Counted from the first letter of the stretch, positions 1 through 13,422 are shown. The stretch is DNA of 21,466 bases from a virus (IMGVR_UViG_2703718792_000016:1-21466); one strand, 5' to 3'. Translations and numbers: made by a program. Notes: generated from the letters alone by a model not told the origin.

Positions 1-567
1 TATCGCGTCCTCAACAATGAATTTTGTGATGCGGTGCCTGGTGCCTCCAGGTGACGTTAACCAGTTAACAATTAACGCCGGATACAGAGAATCCACCCAT
101 AACACTGTTTTTGGTTTTAACTGTTCCGCGTGCGCTGAGCCGCATTCACCGCATCACAAAATTCACTTTAAAAAGGGCGGCAGAGCAGTCACGGAGTAGA
201 ACTGATACCGCCAAAAGTCACCAGAAAATTGATAACAGAGGGCGTTGTAGCGGGGTTGTCACTTAAGTGTATGGTCAACCTGACAACCCGGTGTCCTCAA
301 CGGGGAAGGAATAACCCCGCCATACTTACCGCCGCGCCATTTCGCGGAGTGCCACAACCGGAAGCGCACGGTCGACGAAAATTTAACGACAGGCTATCTA
401 TGAACCAGCTACCTCGCCGTGCGCTTTCGCGTTATGGTCTGACTTTTCAGGGAAATATCCTTTCAGTAAACTGTCAGTGCCGGATGCTCACCCGTGTCCG
501 GCGCACGTACTCCACCTTACCCGTGGAGAACTCCTTAATTACCAACCTTAGCTTCGTTGGTTAGCTA

Positions 568-1392: not shown

Positions 1393-2031
1393 TTAAATAT
1401 CTTGTTGAATTTTAAAGCATACGCCCAATATGCAAGATAGATCATCCAGCATAATTGAAGGGTAGCGAGGATTCGTGGGGACTAAAAGAATATCCGGCCC
1501 TTCTATCTCCAGTTTACGAATGACAGGTGTTGTGGTCCCTTTGGGTAAGGCAAGGACAATATTTCCTGGTTGTACGGTTCGATCGGGATCAACAAAAACT
1601 GTTGAACCATTTGGAATGGAAACTCCCCCACCAGATGTTGACATACTGTCACTCTCTAGAACAACTGCAAAGGTATTGGCCGGGATTTCTCCGACAAGCT
1701 GCACACAAGAGGTTATTGAGGAATTTTTCATATAATCACTCCAGCTTGCTGCCTGCTGAAGTGATAGTAGCGGAACCGTTTTTATCGGCGGTAAAGATAG
1801 ATCAAGCGAATCACCTGTATTTAACTCTCCTCCATTAAGAAGCCAATTTTCGTTTACTTTCAATATCTTTGCCAGTGAACTTATGTAACGCGAGGACGGC
1901 GCTCCTCCACCGTTCATCCATTGACTTACGGAGCCTTTTGATGCGCCAGTGGCATTGACAAGGTCTTTGCCTTTCAGGTTTAGCGCATGCATACGTTGGG
2001 TTATGCGTTCAGATATTGTTTGCTTGCTCAT
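1393..2031 (-). CDS. cI: CI-like prophage repressor (N-terminal HTH, C-terminal S24 LexA-like autopeptidase domain)
   Basis: 212 aa; N-terminal HTH-like segment (...GASKGSVSQWMNGG...), C-terminal SDSM motif and downstream Lys typical of the S24 Ser-Lys dyad; divergent from a cro-like gene. Confidence 0.85.
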   Translation of the reverse strand: MSKQTISERITQRMHALNLKGKDLVNATGASKGSVSQWMNGGGAPSSRYISSLAKILKVNENWLLNGGELNTGDSLDLSLPPIKTVPLLSLQQAASWSDYMKNSSITSCVQLVGEIPANTFAVVLESDSMSTSGGGVSIPNGSTVFVDPDRTVQPGNIVLALPKGTTTPVIRKLEIEGPDILLVPTNPRYPSIMLDDLSCILGVCFKIQQDI

Positions 2032-2122
2032 GTTTTGATTTTAAAACACAGATGGTTTTGTTTCTTGACTTTCTTTGGTTTTGATTATTAAACTTTTGGC
2101 GTTCAGTTTTATGGAGCGACTC
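2032..2122. promoter_or_regulatory. candidate right operator/promoter region (OR with divergent pRM/pR-like promoters)
   Basis: 91-bp gap between divergent repressor and cro-like genes; inverted repeat AAAAC-N7-GTTTT (2043-2059), a second GTTTT..AAAC element (2078-2093), TTGACT -35-like hexamer at 2065-2070. Confidence 0.5.
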
Positions 2123-2353
2123 ATGAAAAAATCAGAAGTATTAGGCTATTTTGGCGGAGTTGTTAAAACAGCCGCAGCTCTAGGAACGTCAAAAACCACA
2201 GTCAGCATGTGGGGGGAAGAGGTTCCGTGGAAATGGGCGTTGCTAATTCAGGCAGTCACTGCCGGGGCGCTCAAATATGAGTTACACATACCGACGGTTG
2301 TCATTCCCGGTTCTGATCATAATCCGCCTTCTAACCAAGGGGGGGATTCATGA
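2123..2353 (+). CDS. cro: Cro-like / YdaS-like small HTH regulator
   Basis: 76 aa from the ATG at 2123 (GGAG 6 nt upstream); divergent from repressor; stop overlaps the next start (ATGA). The track ORF start at 2075 is probably an over-extension. Confidence 0.7.
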   Translation: MKKSEVLGYFGGVVKTAAALGTSKTTVSMWGEEVPWKWALLIQAVTAGALKYELHIPTVVIPGSDHNPPSNQGGDS

Positions 2354-2775
2354 AAATCAAGCATGAACACATCCGCATGGCGATGAATGCCTGGGCGCGT
2401 CCTGATGGCGAAAAAGTTCCAGCAGCTGGAATAACCCAGGCTTATTTTGAGTTGGGTATGACGTTTCCTGAACTGTATGACGACAGCCATCCGGAAGCCC
2501 TGGCTCGCAATACCCAGAAAATTTTCCGCTGGGTAGAGAAAGACACCCCTGATGCAGTTGAAAAAATTCAGGCGTTGTTACCAGCGATCGAAAAGGCAAT
2601 GCCACCTTTGCTGGTGGCCAGAATGCGCAGCCACAGTTCAGCTTATTTTCGGGAGCTAGTGGAGACGCGGGAGCGACTGGTGAGAGACGCTGATGATTTT
2701 GTCGCAGTGGCAATCGCCGGTTTCAATCAGATGAACCGTGGTGGCCCGGCAGGAAATGCTGTGGCAGTACATTGA
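2350..2775 (+). CDS. YdaT-like protein (proposed functional analogue of lambda CII in Rac/CP-933P-type prophages)
   Basis: 141 aa starting MKIKHEHI, immediately downstream of and coupled to the cro-like gene, matching the Rac-type racR/ydaS/ydaT layout. Family recalled from memory. Confidence 0.6.
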   Translation: MKIKHEHIRMAMNAWARPDGEKVPAAGITQAYFELGMTFPELYDDSHPEALARNTQKIFRWVEKDTPDAVEKIQALLPAIEKAMPPLLVARMRSHSSAYFRELVETRERLVRDADDFVAVAIAGFNQMNRGGPAGNAVAVH

Positions 2776-2846
2776 CTGACAATAGCCATATCGAATCGCT
2801 TCCGGCAACTCGTGAGTAAAAAGATTCGGTATCAGAAGAGGTGAGT

Positions 2847-3917
2847 ATGGCTAACGCCTGGCTCAGATTATGGCATGACATGCCAAATGACCCTAAGTGG
2901 CGAACAATTGCCAGGGTGTCAGGGCAGCCAATTGCAACAGTGATGGCAGTGTATATCCACCTCCTGGTGAGTGCGTCACGAAATGTCACGCGAGGTCACA
3001 TTGATGTCACGACAGAAGATTTGGCAAGTGCGCTCGACGTGACAGAAGAGGTAATTGATTCAATTTTGCAGACGATGCAGGGGCGGGTACTTGATGGTGA
3101 TTTAATCACTGGATGGGAAAAACGCCAGGTGCTTAAAGAGGACAACGGCAATATTTCGCAAACCGCAAAATCTCCTGCAGAGCGCAAGAGGGCGCAGCGA
3201 GAGAGGGAAAGAAAGCGGGAACAAAATGGCGATTGTCACGGCGCGTCACGAAATGTCACGCACATGTCACGACGAGTCACGACAGATAAAGATACAGATA
3301 AAGATACAGATCAAGAAGATCAAAACACTATGGTCCATGGCGTAAAAAACGCCACGAACCAGGCAGGGGATGTTCAGACCGTCAATCCTGGTCAGCCAGC
3401 AGGCACGACACCGGAAGCCGATTCAGCGTATGCGCTGAAAGCCGATTCGGGCGCTGTGCAGCAGGCGATGACCGCAGGGTCGGAGCAATCACACCAACTG
3501 CAGCAGCCTGAAGCCGATTCCGCCATTCAGCGGGAAGCCGATCGGGTAGTCCCGAAAAACACCGGGCAGCCTGTGGGACGAGTGGATTATCCGGATGTGT
3601 TCGAACAGATCTGGCGGGAGTACCCGTTGCGTGCCGGGGCAAACCCGAAGAAATCCGCTTTCAGTGCCTGGAAGGCCAGATTACGCGAGGGGGTGCCACC
3701 AGAGGCCATGCTGGATGGCGTGAGGCGTTACGCAAGATACCTAGCGGTTACCGGGAAAACGGGAACGGAATTTGTTCAGCGGGCGACGACGTTTTTTGGA
3801 CCGGACCGGAATTTTGAAAACCCCTGGTTGCTCCCGGTAAGCGGCACGAACAACCAGCGTTGTGTGAATCATATTTCTGAACCGGATACCGAAATTCCGC
3901 CGGGCTTCAGGGGGTAA
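2847..3917 (+). CDS. replication initiation / replisome organiser protein (lambda O-like role) carrying its own iterons
   Basis: 356 aa from the ATG at 2847 (GAGGTGA upstream); low-complexity acidic/Q-A-P-rich linker; two clusters of phased GTCACG repeats inside the coding sequence, as the lambda ori lies inside O. Confidence 0.7.
   Translation: MANAWLRLWHDMPNDPKWRTIARVSGQPIATVMAVYIHLLVSASRNVTRGHIDVTTEDLASALDVTEEVIDSILQTMQGRVLDGDLITGWEKRQVLKEDNGNISQTAKSPAERKRAQRERERKREQNGDCHGASRNVTHMSRRVTTDKDTDKDTDQEDQNTMVHGVKNATNQAGDVQTVNPGQPAGTTPEADSAYALKADSGAVQQAMTAGSEQSHQLQQPEADSAIQREADRVVPKNTGQPVGRVDYPDVFEQIWREYPLRAGANPKKSAFSAWKARLREGVPPEAMLDGVRRYARYLAVTGKTGTEFVQRATTFFGPDRNFENPWLLPVSGTNNQRCVNHISEPDTEIPPGFRG
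2974..3011. repeat. iteron cluster 1: four GTCAC(G/A) copies at 10-11 bp phasing
   Basis: Copies start at 2975, 2985, 2995 and 3006; the 17-mer CGTCACGAAATGTCACG (2974-2990) is repeated exactly at 3244-3260. Confidence 0.55.
3235..3330. repeat. iteron cluster 2 (five GTCACG copies at 10-11 bp phasing) plus adjacent A/T-rich tandem repeat; candidate origin of replication
   Basis: GTCACG at 3235, 3245, 3255, 3266, 3276, followed by ACAGATAAAGAT tandem copies and an A-rich stretch (3282-3330); same architecture as lambda ori (iterons then AT-rich). Confidence 0.55.
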
Positions 3918-3957: not shown

Positions 3958-4383
3958 GTGGCAAAAGTTTTTACACAAGAAGAGCGGGAAAAAATTAAAG
4001 GGCAGGTTGTTGAACTTGTACGCCAGAGTGGGCGCGAGACGTTACGGCAACTGGAAGCCAAGACAGGTGCGACAAGATATCTGATGAGTGTTCTCGCCAG
4101 AGAGCTGGTTGCCAGTGGCGGTGTATACAATTCTGGCTACGGGTTATTCCCGTCTGAACAGGCTCGTAAAGACTGGCAAAACGCCCGCAAAAAATTATCG
4201 AGGGCAAAGCTGAAGAAACCGGTTGTGGTTGATCCTGACCTTATATGGTCATTACCAGATGGAGAAATACGTCGCTACGACAGGCACCTGAATATAATCT
4301 GTCGCGAGTGCCGGGAGAGCGAAGTTATGCAGCGCATACTGGCATTTTATCAAGGAAATGTTAGGTATTTTAGACGTTACTAG
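3958..4383 (+). CDS. hypothetical protein (141 aa), GTG start, immediately after the replication gene
   Basis: ORF with AGGAGG Shine-Dalgarno directly upstream of the GTG; basic, Cys-containing C-terminus; no family recognised. Confidence 0.55.
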   Translation: MAKVFTQEEREKIKGQVVELVRQSGRETLRQLEAKTGATRYLMSVLARELVASGGVYNSGYGLFPSEQARKDWQNARKKLSRAKLKKPVVVDPDLIWSLPDGEIRRYDRHLNIICRECRESEVMQRILAFYQGNVRYFRRY

Positions 4384-4611
4384 ATTAAAGAGCATTAGTT
4401 CAGATGTGAATTGACATTTTCATGGCGCAGGGTAGAGCTAGCGTGGTAGTTTTCTTTGTGCCAGAAACGGCATTTGCAAATATGGCCATGCGCTGTCACT
4501 TAGAGAGGAGCACAGGATTTACCTGTGCTCAAGTTCAATAGTAAAGATGAAAATATTATGAAGATGGTGGGGGAAATGTAACTGCAGTGATACTTTGTGC
4601 AAAAGTAGTAA

Positions 4612-5118
4612 TTATTTCTTTGCAGCCAGAATCAGGCCGTCAAGCCACTCCTGGTGACCATTGAGCATTGGGTTCGGACGAGTATTTGCCAGGTCTTTTG
4701 CTGGAACTCCGTTCTGCGTTTCCTGTGTCAGGATACGGAGTCTGTTACCCGAGAGTTCCTCCAGTAGCCACGCATGATGAACATCTAGGCGTTGTACAGT
4801 ATCTTTTTCACCGGACCATCCGTGCCATGCCAAACGAGCAGGTTTACCTTCAGTAGGTGGAATAAATTCCACGACCTGAGCTTCAACCGGAAATCCAAAT
4901 GTGCTGAAGTAAAAGCGCACGCCATTTTCCAGCTCCGGACCTTTATTGTTATAAAAGCGCACATCTGCTGAATTTTTATAGTATTCCGGCCATAGTAATG
5001 GCTGACTAAGGAGTGGCCAAACATCATTGATGTTCAGACCGGAGATGATCATTTCATTAGACACAAAGTTATCAGTAAATCCCGGAACAAAGCCTTCTGG
5101 CCAGTGAATAGCGTTCAT
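4612..5118 (-). CDS. SRPBCC (Bet v1-like / polyketide cyclase-like) superfamily protein, cargo gene
   Basis: 168 aa from the ATG at 5118 (GGAGG upstream); the track ORF start at 5130 is a TTG extension. Superfamily call from overall sequence character, not a search. Confidence 0.6.
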   Translation of the reverse strand: MNAIHWPEGFVPGFTDNFVSNEMIISGLNINDVWPLLSQPLLWPEYYKNSADVRFYNNKGPELENGVRFYFSTFGFPVEAQVVEFIPPTEGKPARLAWHGWSGEKDTVQRLDVHHAWLLEELSGNRLRILTQETQNGVPAKDLANTRPNPMLNGHQEWLDGLILAAKK

Positions 5119-5253
5119 AAATGCCTCCAATTGCGGTAGTTAATTGTACTGGGTTTGCTGCGTTACGACCGCAACACGATGGCAGTGATTATTAGCGCAA
5201 TGAAGTTATAAGGCGAATTATGATTACTTATAATCTTAATAAGATAAATTATA

Positions 5254-6162
5254 TCAGGAGCCAGTATCTTGGCTAACTTCTACGCATAAAGCCCGAATCC
5301 ACTGATGGCTAGGGTCACGATGAGTTCGTTCATGCCAGGCCATACTCTTGGTAAAGCCCGGAACTTTCAGGGGCAAAGGGAGTATGATTAGATCGTTGTT
5401 AGTCAGGACCATGCGGTGGGGGACAACAGCGATCATATCAGTCACTTGCAATATATCAGGAACTACTTGAAAACTATTAACTGACATGCCTACTCGTCGT
5501 GTCAGACTGAGCTTAGCCAGTGCTTCATCTGTAACACCGGAGAAGCTACCTTCTGAAGACACCAGAATATGTTCCTGTTTGCAAAATTGTTCGAGAGTCA
5601 TTTCTGAATTCGCTGACAACGGATGATTCCGTCGTGCTATGCAAACATAATCTTCTTCATAAAGTGCTCTGCCGTGCAGCTCTCCGGGAGTGGTTTGTGG
5701 TGTTACCAAAGCCAGATCAACTTCTCCCTGAGATAACTGCTGATATATTCGTTTATTGTCTACAGGCCGCACAGAGATTTTAATATTCGGTGCTCGATGT
5801 TTCAGCGCAGCCATCAATGGGACAACAACAGCCTTAACTGCATAGTCCGTTGCGACAATGGTATAAGTTAGTTCTGCCGTCATGGGGTCAAATTTACTTG
5901 GTTTCAGCAGAATCGTGATATCGGTGAGAATTTGTTTTACCGGCATAGCAAGTTCTTTAGCACGGAGTGTGGGAACCATACCGTGACTGGTGCGAACAAA
6001 GAGAGGATCGCAAAAATAATCACGTAATCGAATAAGCATGCCACTGACAGCGGGCTGCGTCAGGGAAAGTCGCTGCGCAGCCCGAGTCACGCTTCCCTCA
6101 TCCATTAACGCATCAAAGGTCTTAAGTAAGTTAAGGTCGAGGGTTTTGATATCATTTTTCAT
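5254..6162 (-). CDS. LysR-family transcriptional regulator
   Basis: 302 aa; N-terminal HTH signature (...LNLLKTFDALMDEGSVTRAAQRLSLTQPAVSGMLIRLRD...) and a C-terminal substrate-binding-type domain of typical length. Confidence 0.9.
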   Translation of the reverse strand: MKNDIKTLDLNLLKTFDALMDEGSVTRAAQRLSLTQPAVSGMLIRLRDYFCDPLFVRTSHGMVPTLRAKELAMPVKQILTDITILLKPSKFDPMTAELTYTIVATDYAVKAVVVPLMAALKHRAPNIKISVRPVDNKRIYQQLSQGEVDLALVTPQTTPGELHGRALYEEDYVCIARRNHPLSANSEMTLEQFCKQEHILVSSEGSFSGVTDEALAKLSLTRRVGMSVNSFQVVPDILQVTDMIAVVPHRMVLTNNDLIILPLPLKVPGFTKSMAWHERTHRDPSHQWIRALCVEVSQDTGS

Positions 6163-6493
6163 AATGAGGTCACCTGACAGATATAAAAATGTTGATTGAG
6201 GCTAATTGCCCCGATGAAGGTTGTCGAGGGGAACCAGGAGTTTTTTCTTTTGGGTGATTTCCATTGCTGGATAGTTCCCTTGTACAGATAAGTCCGTTCT
6301 TCGCACAAAGCGGACTGGAAGGTTAGCTTGAGTCGGACTTTGCGTATTAAAAGAAGTGCTGGTGGTGACTGGTTCTTTAGCCCCATTTCCCCAGAAAAAA
6401 TCAGAGAAACTATACCCAATAGTTGTATTGATTCACTGACGAGACGGCCTCATATTGATAGGGACTAGTGTGCATCCAATACAGGAGGTTGTT

Positions 6494-6583
6494 GTGCTGG
6501 TTCTCAAATGTGCGCTGGCTATTGCGGCTGTAATGGCAATTTATTGTCTTGCTGTTGTTCTTATGGATCGCCTTTCTGATTGA
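6494..6583 (+). CDS. small hydrophobic peptide (29 aa, VLVLKCALAIAAVMAIYCLAVVLMDRLSD), possible membrane peptide or type I toxin-like
   Basis: Not in the ORF track; GTG start with AGGAGG 6 nt upstream; one predicted transmembrane helix with a charged C-terminus; divergent from the LysR gene. Confidence 0.35.
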   Translation: MLVLKCALAIAAVMAIYCLAVVLMDRLSD

Positions 6584-6737
6584 TTTCATATTGGCGAGGT
6601 AACGGTAGTTAAGTAGAATTGCTGCGGGTGCTTGAGGCTATCTGCCTCGGGCATGAACACCAACGGCAGATAGAGAAAAGCCCCAGTTAACATTACGCGT
6701 CCTGCAAGACGTTTAACATTAATCTGAGGCCATATCT

Positions 6738-6797
6738 ATGCGACACATAGAGATTAGCCTCTTACGGACCGAAAGGTCAAGGAGAAGCAGGCTATGA
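6738..6797 (+). CDS. mok-like leader ORF overlapping the hok start
   Basis: 19-codon ORF whose stop overlaps the hok ATG (ATGA), the kind of coupling seen in hok/mok loci. Speculative. Confidence 0.25.
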   Translation: MRHIEISLLRTERSRRSRL

Positions 6798-6949
6798 AGC
6801 AGCAAAAGGCGATGTTAATCGCCCTGATCGTCATCTGTTTAACCGTCATAGTGACGGCACTGGTAACGAGGAAAGACCTCTGCGAGGTACGAATCCGAAC
6901 CGGCCAGACGGAGGTCGCTGTCTTCACAGCTTACGAACCTGAGGAGTAA
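6794..6949 (+). CDS. hokD: Hok/Gef-family type I toxin (HokD/RelF-like)
   Basis: 51 aa MKQQKAMLIALIVICLTVIVTALVTRKDLCEVRIRTGQTEVAVFTAYEPEE; aligns with R1 Hok ([20 protein letters not shown]) and matches my recollection of E. coli RelF/HokD; GGAG Shine-Dalgarno upstream. Confidence 0.85.
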   Translation: MKQQKAMLIALIVICLTVIVTALVTRKDLCEVRIRTGQTEVAVFTAYEPEE

Positions 6950-7396: not shown

Positions 7397-8452
7397 GTGC
7401 GGGTATTACTTCGACCTGTTCTGGTACCGGAACTCGGGCTGGTGATCGTTAAGCCGGGCCGTGAATCCATGCCGGTATTCCACAATACCCGGGTATTGGT
7501 GGAGCCGGAACCGAAAAGCATGCGTAATCTGCCGTCCGGGGTCGTTCCTGCCGTTCGCCAGCCGCTGGTGGAAGACAAAACATTGCTGCCGTTTTTCAGT
7601 AACGCACGGGTGATTCGTGCTGCTGGTGGTGCTGGTGCATTGTCTGACTGGCTGTTGCGCCATATTAAATCCTGCCAGTGGCCACACGGCGATTATCATC
7701 ACAGCGAAACCGTCATTCACCGTTATGGTACCGGCGCAATGGTGTTGTGCTGGCACTGCGACAACCAGCTGCGTGACCAGACATCCGAATCACTCGAGCA
7801 ACTTGCTCATCAAAACCTGTCAGCATGGATGATTGACGTCATCGGTCACGCAATAAGCGGTACGCAGGAGCGTGAATTATCTTTGGCTGAATTATCCTGG
7901 TGGGCGGTCCGCAATCAGGTGGCGGACGCGCTACCGGAAGCGGTATTACGTCGTTCGCTGGGGTTGCGTGCGGAAAAAATCCGCTCAATGTACCGTGAAA
8001 GCGACATCGTACCGGGAGAGCAGACCGCCACCATCATACTGAAGCAGCGCACAAAAAATCTTGCGCCGCTGCCTCACGCCCACCAGCAAAACCCGCCACA
8101 GGAAAAGACGGTGGTCAGCATTGCCGTTGATCCGGAGTCACCGGCTCAGTATCTCCAGCGCCAGAAACCACAACGGGAAGAGATGCCTGTATACACGCGC
8201 TGGGTAAAAACGCAGAAATGCATGACGTGCGGTAATCAGGCAGATGATCTGCATCACATCATTGGTCATGGACTGGGAGGGATGGGAACAAAGGCTGATG
8301 ATTTGTTTGTTATTCCGCTGTGCCGTAAATGTCATAACGAACTGCACGCCGGGGTAAAAGATTTTGAAGAAAAACACGGCAGCCAGCTGTTGTTGCTGAT
8401 TCGTTTTTTAATGCACGCGAGAAATTCGGGTGTCCTGAAGTGGAAAGCATAA
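7397..8452 (+). CDS. DUF968-family prophage protein (YdfU-like) with C-terminal HNH-like Cys/His motif
   Basis: 351 aa, GTG start with GGAGG upstream; C-terminal CMTCGN...DDLHHIIGHG...CRKCHNELH pattern; position matches ydfU in Qin-type prophages. Confidence 0.8.
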   Translation: MRVLLRPVLVPELGLVIVKPGRESMPVFHNTRVLVEPEPKSMRNLPSGVVPAVRQPLVEDKTLLPFFSNARVIRAAGGAGALSDWLLRHIKSCQWPHGDYHHSETVIHRYGTGAMVLCWHCDNQLRDQTSESLEQLAHQNLSAWMIDVIGHAISGTQERELSLAELSWWAVRNQVADALPEAVLRRSLGLRAEKIRSMYRESDIVPGEQTATIILKQRTKNLAPLPHAHQQNPPQEKTVVSIAVDPESPAQYLQRQKPQREEMPVYTRWVKTQKCMTCGNQADDLHHIIGHGLGGMGTKADDLFVIPLCRKCHNELHAGVKDFEEKHGSQLLLLIRFLMHARNSGVLKWKA

Positions 8453-8818
8453 ATGACTGAGCGCATAGAATTTGTTTTGCCTTACCCGCCGTCGGTGAAC
8501 ACCTACTGGCGCCGTCGTGGTGGCGTATATTTTGTATCAAAAGCCGGTGAGCGTTATCGCCGGGATGTGGCGCTTATTGTTCGCCAGCAGCGACTGAAAT
8601 TAAATCTGTCCGGTAGATTGGCAATCAGGATTATTGCAGAGCCACCGGATAAGCGCCGCCGCGACCTGGACAATATCCTGAAGGCACCACTGGATGCACT
8701 GACACATGCAGGACTGCTTATCGACGATGAGCAGTTTGATGAAATCAATATTGTGCGCGGTCAGCTCGTTCCTGGTGGGCGGCTGGGGATAAAAATCACA
8801 GAACTGGAGTGCGCATGA
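8453..8818 (+). CDS. rusA: RusA-family Holliday junction resolvase
   Basis: 121 aa with the RusA core ...PDKRRRDLDNILKAPLDALTHAGLLIDDEQ...; start directly follows the upstream stop. Confidence 0.9.
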   Translation: MTERIEFVLPYPPSVNTYWRRRGGVYFVSKAGERYRRDVALIVRQQRLKLNLSGRLAIRIIAEPPDKRRRDLDNILKAPLDALTHAGLLIDDEQFDEINIVRGQLVPGGRLGIKITELECA

Positions 8819-9504
8819 ATAACCAGTATTTACAGTTTGTGCGTGAGCAGCTCATTATCGCCACCGCTGATTTGAGTGGGGCAACAAAAGGTCAGCTTGA
8901 AGCCTGGCAGGAGAATGCCATGTTCGATACAGGGCGTTACAGGCGAAAAAAAATCCGGTACCGCGATGAAGTGACTGGAAAAATGATAACGCGGAATAAT
9001 CAACCAATCCCGGGAAAGCAATCGCTGGCGAAGGGGACGTCAATTCCTCTGGTCAGTCCGGTTGAGTTTTCGACATCATCGTGGCGGCGGGCTGTTCTGT
9101 CTCTTGAAGAACATCATAAAGCCTGGTTGTTGTGGTGTTACAGCGGGAGTATTTGTTGGGAATATCAGATCGCGATAACACAGTGGGCGTGGAATGAATT
9201 TAATACTCAATCCGGTACCAGAAAAATTGCAGGGAAAACGCAGGAACGCCTGAAAAAATTAATCTGGCTGACGGCGCAGGCAGTAAAAGCAGAACTTTTG
9301 GGTGGGGAAGGTTATGAATACCAGGATCTGGCATTACTGGCGGGAGTGACAACTAAAAACTGGTCCAAAACATTTACTCGTCACTGGGTTGCAATGAAAC
9401 ACATTTTTCACCGACTGGATAGTGAGGCTTTATTGTTTGTAATGAGAACACGTTCAAAACAAAAGGCGGCATTTTCAAAGCAAAGTGTTGCAAAAGTAGA
9501 TTGA
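8815..9504 (+). CDS. putative late-gene antiterminator (Q-like)
   Basis: 229 aa; ATG overlaps the rusA stop; located after the nin-like genes and before a promoter/terminator module, tRNAs and the lysis cassette. Assignment rests on position, not recognised motifs. Confidence 0.55.
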   Translation: MNNQYLQFVREQLIIATADLSGATKGQLEAWQENAMFDTGRYRRKKIRYRDEVTGKMITRNNQPIPGKQSLAKGTSIPLVSPVEFSTSSWRRAVLSLEEHHKAWLLWCYSGSICWEYQIAITQWAWNEFNTQSGTRKIAGKTQERLKKLIWLTAQAVKAELLGGEGYEYQDLALLAGVTTKNWSKTFTRHWVAMKHIFHRLDSEALLFVMRTRSKQKAAFSKQSVAKVD

Positions 9505-9713: not shown

Positions 9714-9789
9714 GGCCCTTTAGCTCAGTGGTGAGAGCGAGCGACTCATAATCGCCAGGTCGCTGGTTCAAATCCAGCAAGGGCCACCA
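9714..9789 (+). tRNA. tRNA with CAT anticodon, most similar to tRNA-Ile2 (lysidine, ileX/ileZ-like); Met not excluded
   Basis: 76 nt; cloverleaf with 7-bp acceptor stem GGCCCTT/AAGGGCC, anticodon loop CTCATAA, T-loop TTCAAAT, CCA encoded; close to my recollection of E. coli ileX. Confidence 0.85.
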
Positions 9790-9790
9790 A

Positions 9791-9867
9791 CCGCCACTAG
9801 CTCATCAGGAAAGAGCGTCAACCCTTTAAGTTGAGTGTGCGAGGTTCGAGTCCCCGGTGGCGGTCCA
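9791..9867 (+). tRNA. tRNA-like gene with non-canonical anticodon loop CCTTTAA (formal anticodon TTT, Lys); isotype uncertain
   Basis: 77 nt; acceptor stem CCGCCAC/GTGGCGG, T-loop TTCGAGT, CCA encoded, but C at position 33 and an A-C mismatch in the T-stem. Confidence 0.55.
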
Positions 9868-9869
9868 GT

Positions 9870-9945
<76 letters not shown>

Positions 9946-9948
9946 TAT

Positions 9949-10023
<75 letters not shown>

Positions 10024-10186: not shown

Positions 10187-10750
10187 TTAGTTTTTATTCG
10201 CCGTCCATTTACCACAAATTGGTCTGGAGAAGATTGCCAGAATGGCAATAAAGGATATTTCAATTGAAACAGACCAGCATATATGTCCAATCAGTTCGCT
10301 CCAGAATTCATAGCCGTTTAGATTCCATAGCCATCCTCTTTCATGGCCGGGAAGATACGCGGGAAATCTGAAGCCCAGCGCGGGTATTAAAATACCATGC
10401 ATGACTAATGTAATAAGAATTCCATATACAGCCCCATACCACATGCGGACTCGTGGAATAAAAACAGACAGGTATATGTATACAAAGGCAAAAATGAAAC
10501 TAAAAAGCCAATGGTAGAGCATAACAGCTCCGGGAATTGTTACTCCTTGGTAAATGTAATCCAGCGAGTGTGAATTTATTCCCAGAAAACCCAACCAGGC
10601 GTCGATATTCATTGCTGGTGGAGAAATTTCTCCGGCCATTCTTGGGGGCATGTTAGCTTCAGTTCCTGATTTCACCAGAGAGCTGATCGCGCCACCGACC
10701 AGTGTTGCCCAAAGTATGATTTTTAGATTTACGCTATTCCATTTACACAT
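10187..10750 (-). CDS. DUF1440-family inner membrane protein (YagU-like), moron between tRNAs and lysis genes
   Basis: 187 aa from the ATG at 10750 (GAGG upstream); several hydrophobic helices; C-terminal ...SELIGHICWSVSIEI... resembles the YagU signature. The 93-codon upstream extension in the track ORF is low-complexity and probably untranslated. Confidence 0.7.
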   Translation of the reverse strand: MCKWNSVNLKIILWATLVGGAISSLVKSGTEANMPPRMAGEISPPAMNIDAWLGFLGINSHSLDYIYQGVTIPGAVMLYHWLFSFIFAFVYIYLSVFIPRVRMWYGAVYGILITLVMHGILIPALGFRFPAYLPGHERGWLWNLNGYEFWSELIGHICWSVSIEISFIAILAIFSRPICGKWTANKN

Positions 10751-11043
10751 AAACAACCTCTTGTTTGTTGGGTTGGGGTTATCATACATGACTGCTTGTT
10801 GCGATTTTGCATCGTAATGTTTCTGTTTGTTGTCTTTTGTGTTGTTTGTCTCTTTAGTGTTCTGTGTGTGACTATGTACACTCTGTATAGTGGGGGCTCC
10901 CGTTGGTGCAGAGAATAACGAAATCTGAAAATAACCGTTTTCAGTTGTGGCGCCCGCAACAAAAGCGCATGCTGACTGTGCGAAGATAATCCCGCTGTGA
11001 CGAGTAATCTCGAACGTCATTGTTTTCATTTATGCCAGTTACC

Positions 11044-11070
11044 CAAAGCTGGCTTTTTTTGAGGTCTGCT
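11044..11070 (+). terminator. intrinsic terminator-like hairpin with T7 run (plus orientation)
   Basis: GCCAG / CTGGC stem followed by TTTTTTT. Confidence 0.5.
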
Positions 11071-11073
11071 CCG

Positions 11074-11097
11074 GCAGGCTTTTTTTATTCCGGCATA
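11074..11097 (+). terminator. intrinsic terminator-like hairpin with T-run (plus orientation)
   Basis: GTCTGC / GCAGGC stem with TCCG tetraloop followed by seven T. Confidence 0.5.
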
Positions 11098-11301
11098 TAT
11101 AACTATGGAGTATTGCGACAACCTGATAAAAGTCTGCATATCGCGATCCAACGGTAGAAGCGATAAACGAGCTGAGCGATATGTTTCCAGAGGAGAAGAG
11201 GTTGAGCGATACGAAGAAACAGCTAAGTATATTAAGAGAATGTTAATGTGCTTCATTGCTGATCAGAAGCTATCGGGATAATCATCAGTTTTTTGTATTG
11301 A

Positions 11302-11324
11302 GGCTCGCTACGGCGGGCCTTTTT
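11302..11324 (+). terminator. intrinsic terminator-like hairpin with T-run (plus orientation)
   Basis: GGCTCGC / GCGGGCC stem (one G-U pair), TACG loop, then TTTTT. Confidence 0.5.
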
Positions 11325-11465
11325 CACATCCGCGTCACGCCCGGCGCACATCACATCAGATAACGCTATACAAAAGGCATCTTCGGGTGCCTTTGATGGG
11401 GGGGCGGGCCGCTGGTGGCTTTTTTTGTTTCCATTACACAGCACCCGCATCTGCGAGGTGGGGTT

Positions 11466-13107: not shown

Positions 13108-13422
13108 ATGCTACATGATCACCAGGCTGAATGTCTGGAGAAAAAAGGACTGTACCGGAGAGCGGCTGCACGATGGGCAAAAGTGATGGTACAGCTAAGT
13201 GATGATCAGAAAAGAAAAATCGCGGCACAGAAACGAGCAGAGTGTTTGCGTAAGGCGCGCCGGACTTCGGTTGCACCGGTGAATCTGACAGAAATAAAGC
13301 AAGCGGTCAACAGACTACATTCTGAGTTGGGAATGGGATTTGAAGAGCGGCGGATATTCCGACGATATAAAGGGACAGGAGAACAGAATACGTCCGGAAA
13401 CGCGCGCTCAAAAAAATGCTAA
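13108..13422 (+). CDS. PerC-family transcriptional regulator (Pch-like), moron between lysis genes and cos
   Basis: 104 aa; N-terminal ...LEKKGLYRRAAARWAKVM... matches the PerC/Pch signature as I recall it; preceded by about 460 bp of A/T-rich non-coding DNA and followed by a terminator. Confidence 0.6.
   Translation: MLHDHQAECLEKKGLYRRAAARWAKVMVQLSDDQKRKIAAQKRAECLRKARRTSVAPVNLTEIKQAVNRLHSELGMGFEERRIFRRYKGTGEQNTSGNARSKKC

Follow-up and report, generated by a model that had tools for sequence, protein, structure and literature searches.

The window, a viral DNA stretch of 21,466 nucleotides (IMGVR_UViG_2703718792_000016, positions 1–21,466), covers part of a lambdoid Escherichia coli prophage of the Rac/Qin type. 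Positions 4449–6315 are a self-contained two-gene cassette, which lies in a variable cargo slot and is oriented antisense to the early-right operon. The cassette encodes a LysR-type transcriptional regulator (LTTR) as well as a protein with an SRPBCC fold, and is flanked by a pair of imperfect palindromes of 24 bp, A' and B'. We consider it probable that the pair is a mobile LysR–SRPBCC unit, which provides a small-molecule stress or detoxification trait switched by LysR and which entered the slot by way of A' and B'. This reading is built on the identities of the two genes, the fold of the SRPBCC protein, the synteny of the pair, its rarity and prophage location in E. coli, the boundaries of the unit, and the variability of the slot. 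The cassette contains the following features, with coordinates counted from the first letter of the window:

4449–4472, no strand: left boundary site A', degenerate in the window (window GTTTTCTTTGTGCCAGAAACGGCA; consensus GTCCGCTTTGTGCCAGAAGCGGAC)
4508–4530, minus strand: stem-loop with a 9-bp stem, GAGCACAGG-ATTTA-CCTGTGCTC, about 80 nt 3' of the SRPBCC stop codon, read from the sequence and alignment
4612–5118, minus strand: SRPBCC-fold protein of the jhp0584/4R7K family, 168 residues, ATG start
5131–5253, minus strand: intergenic control region, a 123-bp spacer with three conserved elements
5188–5194: −10-like TAATAAT in the control region
5205–5212: conserved element CTTATAAC in the control region
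5243–5255: predicted LTTR-box-like dyad GATATAATTTATC, overlapping the LysR stop codon
5254–6162, minus strand: LysR-type regulator, 302 residues, ATG start (PF00126, 1.3e-17; PF03466, 9.3e-37)
6163–6291, minus strand: region 5' of the LysR gene, presumed LysR promoter, inside a 1.86-kb block common to other genera
6292–6315, no strand: right boundary site B' (window GTCCGTTCTTCGCACAAAGCGGAC; consensus GTCCGCT(C/T)TTCGCTCAAAGCGGAC; one mismatch)

The island is rare in E. coli. It is present with both flanks intact in four of 5426 complete genomes, at 99.5–99.9% identity, and one additional copy is disrupted. All five copies are prophage-borne and occupy the same slot; as a previous interpretation of the sequence alone (hereafter the sequence-only reading) had supposed, the genes belong to a prophage. 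They are not housekeeping paralogs of E. coli, and a known metabolic role was not found for the family. The late regions of the island-carrying prophages differ from each other, and the best match to the whole window among the complete E. coli genomes covers 84% of it, so the island resides in at least three mosaic prophage backgrounds. E. coli ChlosBP-23-1 has a near-identical early region with the same annotation as the window. In the disrupted copy, that of E. coli RM9088 (L002 4812–9070), an ISCro1 element of the IS66 family separates the two genes, an IS3 element is located just upstream of the LysR gene, and the LysR gene is also frameshifted. No homolog was found in 50,697 phage records, and 157 plasmids encode homologs. 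Outside E. coli, the 168-residue family is found in ordinary chromosomal or plasmid settings, beside its own LysR and enzymes of redox metabolism or detoxification.

Copies of the complete cassette are present in other genera. Positions 4454–6315 of the window align at approximately 85% to sequences from Yokenella, Atlantibacter, Salmonella enterica subsp. salamae, and Candidatus Pantoea alvi. Among these four genomes and a plasmid-like record of Klebsiella michiganensis, the 1.87-kb unit is 93–99.6% identical, and the flanking 3 kb on either side have no detectable similarity in any pair. The flanks in the other genera consist of ordinary chromosomal or plasmid genes, and a phage origin of these copies was rejected because no gene of the window phage is located within 6 kb of them. 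The similarity between the copies ends inside the palindromes, the cargo-side arm of which is common, and the outer arm specific to the context. In two copies that are 0.4% apart inside the unit, the outer arms differ at three of nine and at least four of nine positions, the exact counts on the B' side being approximate owing to small indels in B'. The cassette appears to have entered by recombination centered in A' and B'.

It is unlikely that E. coli carries the cassette as a passenger without function, resulting from a recent accidental capture, unexpressed and decaying. Such a passenger would be consistent with the great rarity of the island, with the copy that is both interrupted by insertion sequences and frameshifted, and with the degradation of the two boundary sites in the window. 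However, the window and the four complete genomes retain both open reading frames, the Shine–Dalgarno sequence, and the conserved control elements in intact form. Furthermore, the E. coli lineage has diverged from the other genera by approximately 15% in DNA, yet the protein is 92–93% identical, which implies purifying selection since the split and argues against a passenger.

The alignment of junctions shows that the slot is bracketed by A' on the left and B' on the right. A' is composed of GTCCGCTTT-GTGCCA-GAAGCGGAC and B' of GTCCGCTTT-TCGCTC-AAAGCGGAC; the arms are common to the two sites and the centers differ. A' is identical to the reverse complement of B' at 20–21 of 24 positions, and to B' in direct orientation at 18–19. 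Across 30 cargo types, the conservation of the motif columns is 0.89–0.96, compared to 0.40 in the 60 nt on the cargo side and 0.50 in the 60 nt on the backbone side. The common lambdoid backbone begins at position 6292, where megablast matches to more than 4000 E. coli genomes start. The A' consensus can form an 8-bp hairpin (−7.6 kcal/mol, z −4.7), into which the A' of the window does not fold. The TCGCTC center, that of B', is the most conserved part, and the arms lack covariation. Conserved hairpins of RNA or DNA were not supported as an interpretation of A' and B', since most changes in the arms break pairs, with six C·A mismatches versus one compensated pair. Intrinsic terminators were rejected because the sites are not followed by a T tract on either strand, and REP/BIME-type repeats were rejected for E. 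coli because of the low copy number of the sites. E. coli genomes with any A' or B' site have a median of one such place and a maximum of seven. No strong A' or B' site was detected in approximately 0.77 Mb of loci from other Proteobacteria, many of them from Pantoea and Erwinia.

The slot between the two sites accommodates many alternative cargos. An exact-pattern scan for A' yielded 100 viral contigs, in which B' was sought downstream with up to four mismatches. B' was found 398–4086 bp downstream of A' in 65 of them, where essentially none would be expected by chance. Because A' was chosen by pattern, only B' and the pairing of the sites constitute independent evidence. The 65 contigs, together with the window, E. 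coli D3, and phage Evi, provide 68 intervals, which form 31 clusters of unrelated cargo; a few of the clusters have a gene in common. The slot of D3 contains a 1210-residue Tmn-like protein, and that of Evi a regulator and an acetyltransferase. The cargo also includes NUDIX and HAD hydrolases, an HTH-cupin regulator with a GNAT acetyltransferase, a ParA-like ATPase, and a RelA/SpoT-domain protein, as well as genes that PADLOC recognizes as defense genes: PDC-S39, Tmn, a CBASS-type cyclase, NsnA/PD-T4-2, and a retron RT III-A. The comparison of related prophages bears out the expectation of the sequence-only reading that the island occupies a place for accessory or exclusion genes. The DUF977 gene is located upstream of A' in 49 of 97 viral contigs and hok downstream of B' in 33 of 55, and the sites are therefore not tied to one backbone.

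Units bounded by A' and B' also occur in tandem and outside the slot. Tandem A'–cargo–B' arrays are present in viral contigs, Pantoea, Yokenella, Rahnella, and E. coli CT02 (cargo AraC and TauE). In the arrays, the next A' begins 37–46 nt after the start of the preceding B', with variable linkers of 13–22 nt. In the plasmid-like K. michiganensis record, A' and B' also flank an SDR gene. In the Qin prophage of E. coli K-12, flxA is bracketed by A' and B' and is inverted relative to the backbone; relBE was rejected as such a cassette, since only flxA is bracketed there. The sites in other loci are located as follows:

L092: 893–916 and 5001–5024
L093: 2583–2606 and 4001–4024
L004: 3441–3502
L012: 4757–4826 and 6646–6669
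L194: 3503–3563 and 5310–5333
L196: 9955–10880
L195: 7982–8005 and 8973–8996
L157, L158, and L145: arrays

It is possible, and we propose it tentatively, that A' and B' serve as sites of recombination in an Enterobacterales cassette-exchange system not described before, in which A'–cargo–B' units move by crossover in the site centers and fill the hot spot. In that case, units that hold one to four genes, oriented either way, may move between lambdoid prophages, plasmids, and chromosomes, and the LysR–SRPBCC unit would be an example of them, captured in six contexts unrelated to each other. The exchange may occur by short homology between pre-existing sites, or a dedicated protein may act on A' and B'. 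A RecE-like exonuclease is encoded by the host prophages, and arms of this length suffice for Red/RecET systems. The cassette was also considered as a transposon-like element, for which A' and B' would be the terminal inverted repeats. No transposase or integrase was found associated with the cassette or its sites, and no target-site duplications were seen around the cassette in the six contexts. A description of the A' and B' palindromes was not found in the literature, of which a limited part was searchable. In three contexts, fragments of Tn3-family and IS91-family transposases and an Rpn-family nuclease gene are located within approximately 1.2 kb of A' or B' sites (L003 8774–9244; L194 1920–2361; L196 3879–4424 and 8768–9730). 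Their proximity could be fortuitous, or could point to the factor that acts at A' and B'.

The regulator encoded by the cassette has the domain layout of an LTTR, with PF00126 at residues 10–67 and PF03466 at residues 99–296, in agreement with its earlier assignment as a LysR protein. The best NCBIfam models, BsrA (NF050187, 206 versus a cut-off of 480 bits) and LeuO (NF007063, 172 versus 262 bits), both scored below their cut-offs, as did all others, and the protein is therefore not an ortholog of any named regulator. Its nearest solved structures are entries of DntR (E 1e-53, residues 4–297), followed by PcpR and then MexT. DntR is a salicylate- and nitroaromatic-responsive regulator of the NahR type, and PcpR responds to chlorophenols. 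The regulator appears to belong to a DntR/NahR/PcpR-like branch and to be the cognate regulator of the SRPBCC gene.

The association of the two genes is conserved. The SRPBCC gene is present in at least 573 species, and synteny was evaluated in 80 species loci from a scan with one genome per species. LysR proteins that scored at least 250 bits against that of the window were counted as orthologs; unrelated LysR proteins in the same loci scored 20–60 bits. An orthologous LysR gene is located less than 4 kb from the SRPBCC gene in 68 of the 80 loci. In the closest Enterobacterales, the order is tandem, with LysR followed by a spacer of 112–151 bp and the SRPBCC gene. Most other Proteobacteria have the two genes in divergent orientation, as is classical for LTTRs. 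The two genes appear to constitute a conserved regulator–target module.

The spacer between the genes contains the blocks GATATAA-TTATC, CTTATAAC, and −10-like ATAATCA, which are conserved in 17 tandem loci. The dyad ATAA-N6-TTAT is found in 15 of the 17, approximately 125–135 nt 5' of the SRPBCC start codon, and a related dyad, ATCA-N7-TGAT, in 12 of 30 divergent loci. A promoter scan identified a promoter-like site at 5275–5248, and called no strong consensus promoter in the region 6163–6291 upstream of the LysR gene. Because of the conserved synteny and the blocks and dyads of the spacer, we infer that LysR acts as a local activator of the SRPBCC promoter.

It is less probable still than a passenger that the regulator is a LeuO- or MexT-like global regulator, which reprograms genes of the host or the prophage, for instance as an antagonist of H-NS or a modulator of induction, and for which the SRPBCC gene is a minor target. 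LeuO is the second-best NCBIfam model, the effector domains of LeuO and MexT are among the PDB matches, the window itself carries a PerC-family activator, and prophage-encoded regulators of host genes are well known. Nevertheless, the scores are well under the cut-offs of LeuO and BsrA, and the match to DntR (1e-53) contrasts with that to LeuO (7e-12). The synteny with the SRPBCC gene is strict in the 68 of 80 species whatever surrounds the two genes, and is therefore the signature of a local regulator.

The ATG at position 5118 is the likelier start of the SRPBCC gene, because it is preceded by GGAGG 7 nt upstream, is the start assigned by NCBI in identical genomes, and is common to all homologs. 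The longer version of the open reading frame (4612–5130) has a TTG start at 5130 and encodes 172 residues. The 168-residue protein has a confident SRPBCC fold of the helix-grip type, with an antiparallel beta-sheet around a long C-terminal helix, and is closest to Helicobacter pylori jhp0584 (PDB: 4R7K). A profile of 30 homologs compared to the PDB matched 4R7K as the sole entry. The protein had no match in Pfam (E up to 10), NCBIfam, PHROGs, or PADLOC, and was matched by none of the SRPBCC sequence models (Polyketide_cyc, Polyketide_cyc2, AHSA1, and others). The membership in the SRPBCC superfamily claimed by the sequence-only reading therefore stands for the fold and fails for a sequence family model. 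The family is large and strongly constrained: it comprises 1552 clusters at 90% identity, its members from Enterobacterales, Rhizobium, Sphingomonas, Acinetobacter, Gluconobacter, and others are 65–90% identical to each other, and 62 positions are invariant among 30 diverse members. The stem-loop downstream of the gene, at 4508–4530, is partly kept in the cassette copies, lacks a T tract, and was missed by the terminator scan; it may be a candidate transcript end.

The neighbors of the SRPBCC gene in the 80 loci suggest the type of chemistry in which it may participate, and the SRPBCC fold is a ligand-cavity fold. Recurrent neighbors are Oxidored_FMN NADH:flavin oxidoreductases of the old-yellow-enzyme type (18), Zn-ADH/quinone-oxidoreductase-like proteins (ADH_N, 9), HIBADH-like enzymes (8), DJ-1/PfpI proteins (8), glyoxalase-fold proteins (7), SDR enzymes (5), and aldo-keto reductases (4). 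In Sphingomonas and Gluconobacter, the SRPBCC gene is the last in an operon divergent from LysR, which contains genes for a glyoxalase or DJ-1 protein, an ADH, and an old yellow enzyme. In H. pylori J99, jhp0585, the next locus tag after jhp0584, encodes a HIBADH-like enzyme (PMC3120642). Taken together, the enzyme neighbors and the kinship of the regulator to DntR, PcpR, and MexT point to a response of the pair to an aromatic, quinone, or reactive-carbonyl compound. A role in small-molecule-induced stress or detoxification appears most likely.

Least credible is a toxin-like function, which the sequence-only reading regarded as possible. The SRPBCC protein would then, like RatA, target ribosomes as a toxin, or would be another growth-arresting effector, and LysR would hold it in check or induce it as part of an abortive-infection or exclusion module. 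RatA is a member of the SRPBCC fold superfamily, the island adjoins hok/sok, and the slot carries defense genes, namely a CBASS cyclase, retron RT III-A, Tmn, PDC-S39, and NsnA/PD-T4-2 in other phages, but neither protein has a PADLOC match (E up to 1), PF03364 (RatA/CoQ10) is not matched and the RatA/CoQ10-like structure 1T17 ranks 56th with 7% identity, an antitoxin-type partner gene and homologs in the phage records are absent, and the slow evolution of the family across Proteobacteria and its ordinary chromosomal settings with redox enzymes are unlike those of defense genes. These observations leave the toxin idea unsupported, and it is to be dropped.

For the LysR–SRPBCC cassette as a switched stress or detoxification unit, we propose the following mechanism. 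The cassette would have arrived by recombination centered in the two 24-bp palindromic sites. LysR would bind the conserved dyad in the 123-bp spacer, sense a small aromatic, phenolic, or electrophilic compound, and turn on the SRPBCC promoter. The SRPBCC protein would then bind or convert that compound or a related one. The lysogen would gain an accessory stress-tolerance or detoxification trait expressed from the cassette's own promoters, antisense to the repressed early-right operon.

Several observations weigh against this proposal. In the window, the two boundary sites have decayed, A' strongly so, and the cassette may therefore have lost its mobility there; an enzyme that would act on the sites was not identified. 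That E. coli can dispense with the module follows from the split and frameshifted copy of RM9088. The LysR box is a prediction, as is the binding of the regulator to it, and LTTRs are not typically encoded in tandem with their targets. The chemistry is assigned through guilt by association, because redox enzymes are neighbors in only a minority of the loci. Nothing specific was found in the literature on jhp0584 or 4R7K, neither a function, a ligand, nor a publication, and no characterized members were found in the SRPBCC family or among the orthologs of the window LysR.

The remaining part of the window confirms that the two same-strand genes are located between the replication genes and the downstream phage genes, opposite in orientation to their flanks. 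The G+C content over positions 4501–6500 is 0.43–0.45, compared to 0.51–0.54 in the flanking phage genes. The other features of the window are:

175–226, minus strand: DicF small RNA (Rfam, 71.5 bits), at the left edge of the window
1393–2031, minus strand: CI-like S24 repressor
2075–2353, plus strand: P22-Cro-like gene
2350–2775, plus strand: YdaT
2841–3917, plus strand: replication organizer
3958–4383, plus strand: DUF977 (YdaW-like; PF06163, 5.7e-28), last gene of the replication block and left backbone edge of the cargo slot
6626–6949, plus strand: sok RNA and hok toxin, a complete type I toxin–antitoxin system (Rfam RF01794, 101 bits; PF01848, 1.2e-23), right backbone neighbor of the slot
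7397–8452, plus strand: DUF968
8453–8818, plus strand: RusA
8809–9504, plus strand: Q antiterminator
9714–10023, plus strand: four tRNA genes directly 3' of Q (ARAGORN: Met(CAT), Lys(TTT), Thr(TGT), Gly(TCC))
10187–11450, minus strand: three open reading frames between the tRNA cluster and the holin gene, encoding a 280-residue DUF1440 protein and proteins of 76 and 65 residues without a family match
13108–13422, plus strand: PerC-family transcriptional activator (PF06069, 6.8e-42), between the lysis genes and Nu1/terminase
Beyond the tRNA genes: holin, lysozyme, Rz, the PerC-family gene, Nu1, terminase, and portal

An Rfam scan of the island and its flanks detected sok only. The tRNA with the CAT anticodon is assigned as Met by ARAGORN and as Ile by RefSeq in a related genome. 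The three open reading frames at 10187–11450 form another opposite-strand cargo block, downstream of Q. The PerC-family gene is a second moron-like insert, located in a stretch of low G+C content (0.39–0.43), and is a family relative of the Pch/PerC regulators found in attaching-effacing E. coli.

The two genes are ordinary prophage cargo of a familiar kind, an LTTR and its target, and the boundary sites are the interesting lead. The pair gives a few E. coli lysogens a rare trait, which is probably related to chemical stress, and it connects the uncharacterized and very conserved 4R7K-like family, which has no Pfam model, to a dedicated LysR sensor, the inducer of which would reveal the function. 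If A' and B' are exchange points, they would explain how the slot samples defense and metabolic genes from the chromosomes and plasmids of several genera, and would provide a simple sequence tag for cataloguing such cargo.

The nearest relative of the SRPBCC protein, jhp0584 (PDB: 4R7K), is a "hypothetical protein" from structural genomics, in which His99 of the window protein is replaced by Arg. RatA (YfjG) and other SRPBCC proteins, including polyketide cyclases, PYR/PYL, Bet v 1, and AHSA1, share the helix-grip fold. However, their identity to the window protein is 5–20%, they have no sequence-profile match to it, and RatA is no closer than dozens of others. The regulator is similar to DntR over its full length, has an effector domain like those of PcpR and MexT, and, as in systems of the DntR/NahR/PcpR type, adjoins its presumed target and a predicted dyad of the T-N11-A type. 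In contrast to these systems, the order in Enterobacterales is tandem, and a lone SRPBCC gene is the presumed target in place of a catabolic operon.

Mobile cassettes with short terminal sites include integron cassettes (attC), pdif modules of Acinetobacter plasmids, and mobile insertion cassettes with inverted repeats of the insertion-sequence type. The A'–cargo–B' units resemble them in consisting of one to four genes without a recombinase, and in their fixed ends, tandem arrays, short junctions, and occurrence in unrelated contexts across genera. They differ in having two sites per unit with common arms and different centers, cargo in either orientation with its own predicted promoter, no associated integrase or transposase, and no target duplication seen. 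A' and B' are not known to resemble attC or dif. The cassette is also similar to prophage morons and hot spots, such as lambda rex, sieB, bor, and lom, and the hot spots of P2 and P4 (Rousset et al. 2022, PMC9122126), in being an autonomous unit that is absent from close relatives, has a lower G+C content, and is located on the opposite strand, in a slot with many alternative cargos that include defense systems. Unlike in those hot spots, the cargo here is a regulator with a putative small-molecule-handling protein and not a recognized defense or virulence gene, and a particular pair of 24-bp palindromes delimits both the cassette and its slot.

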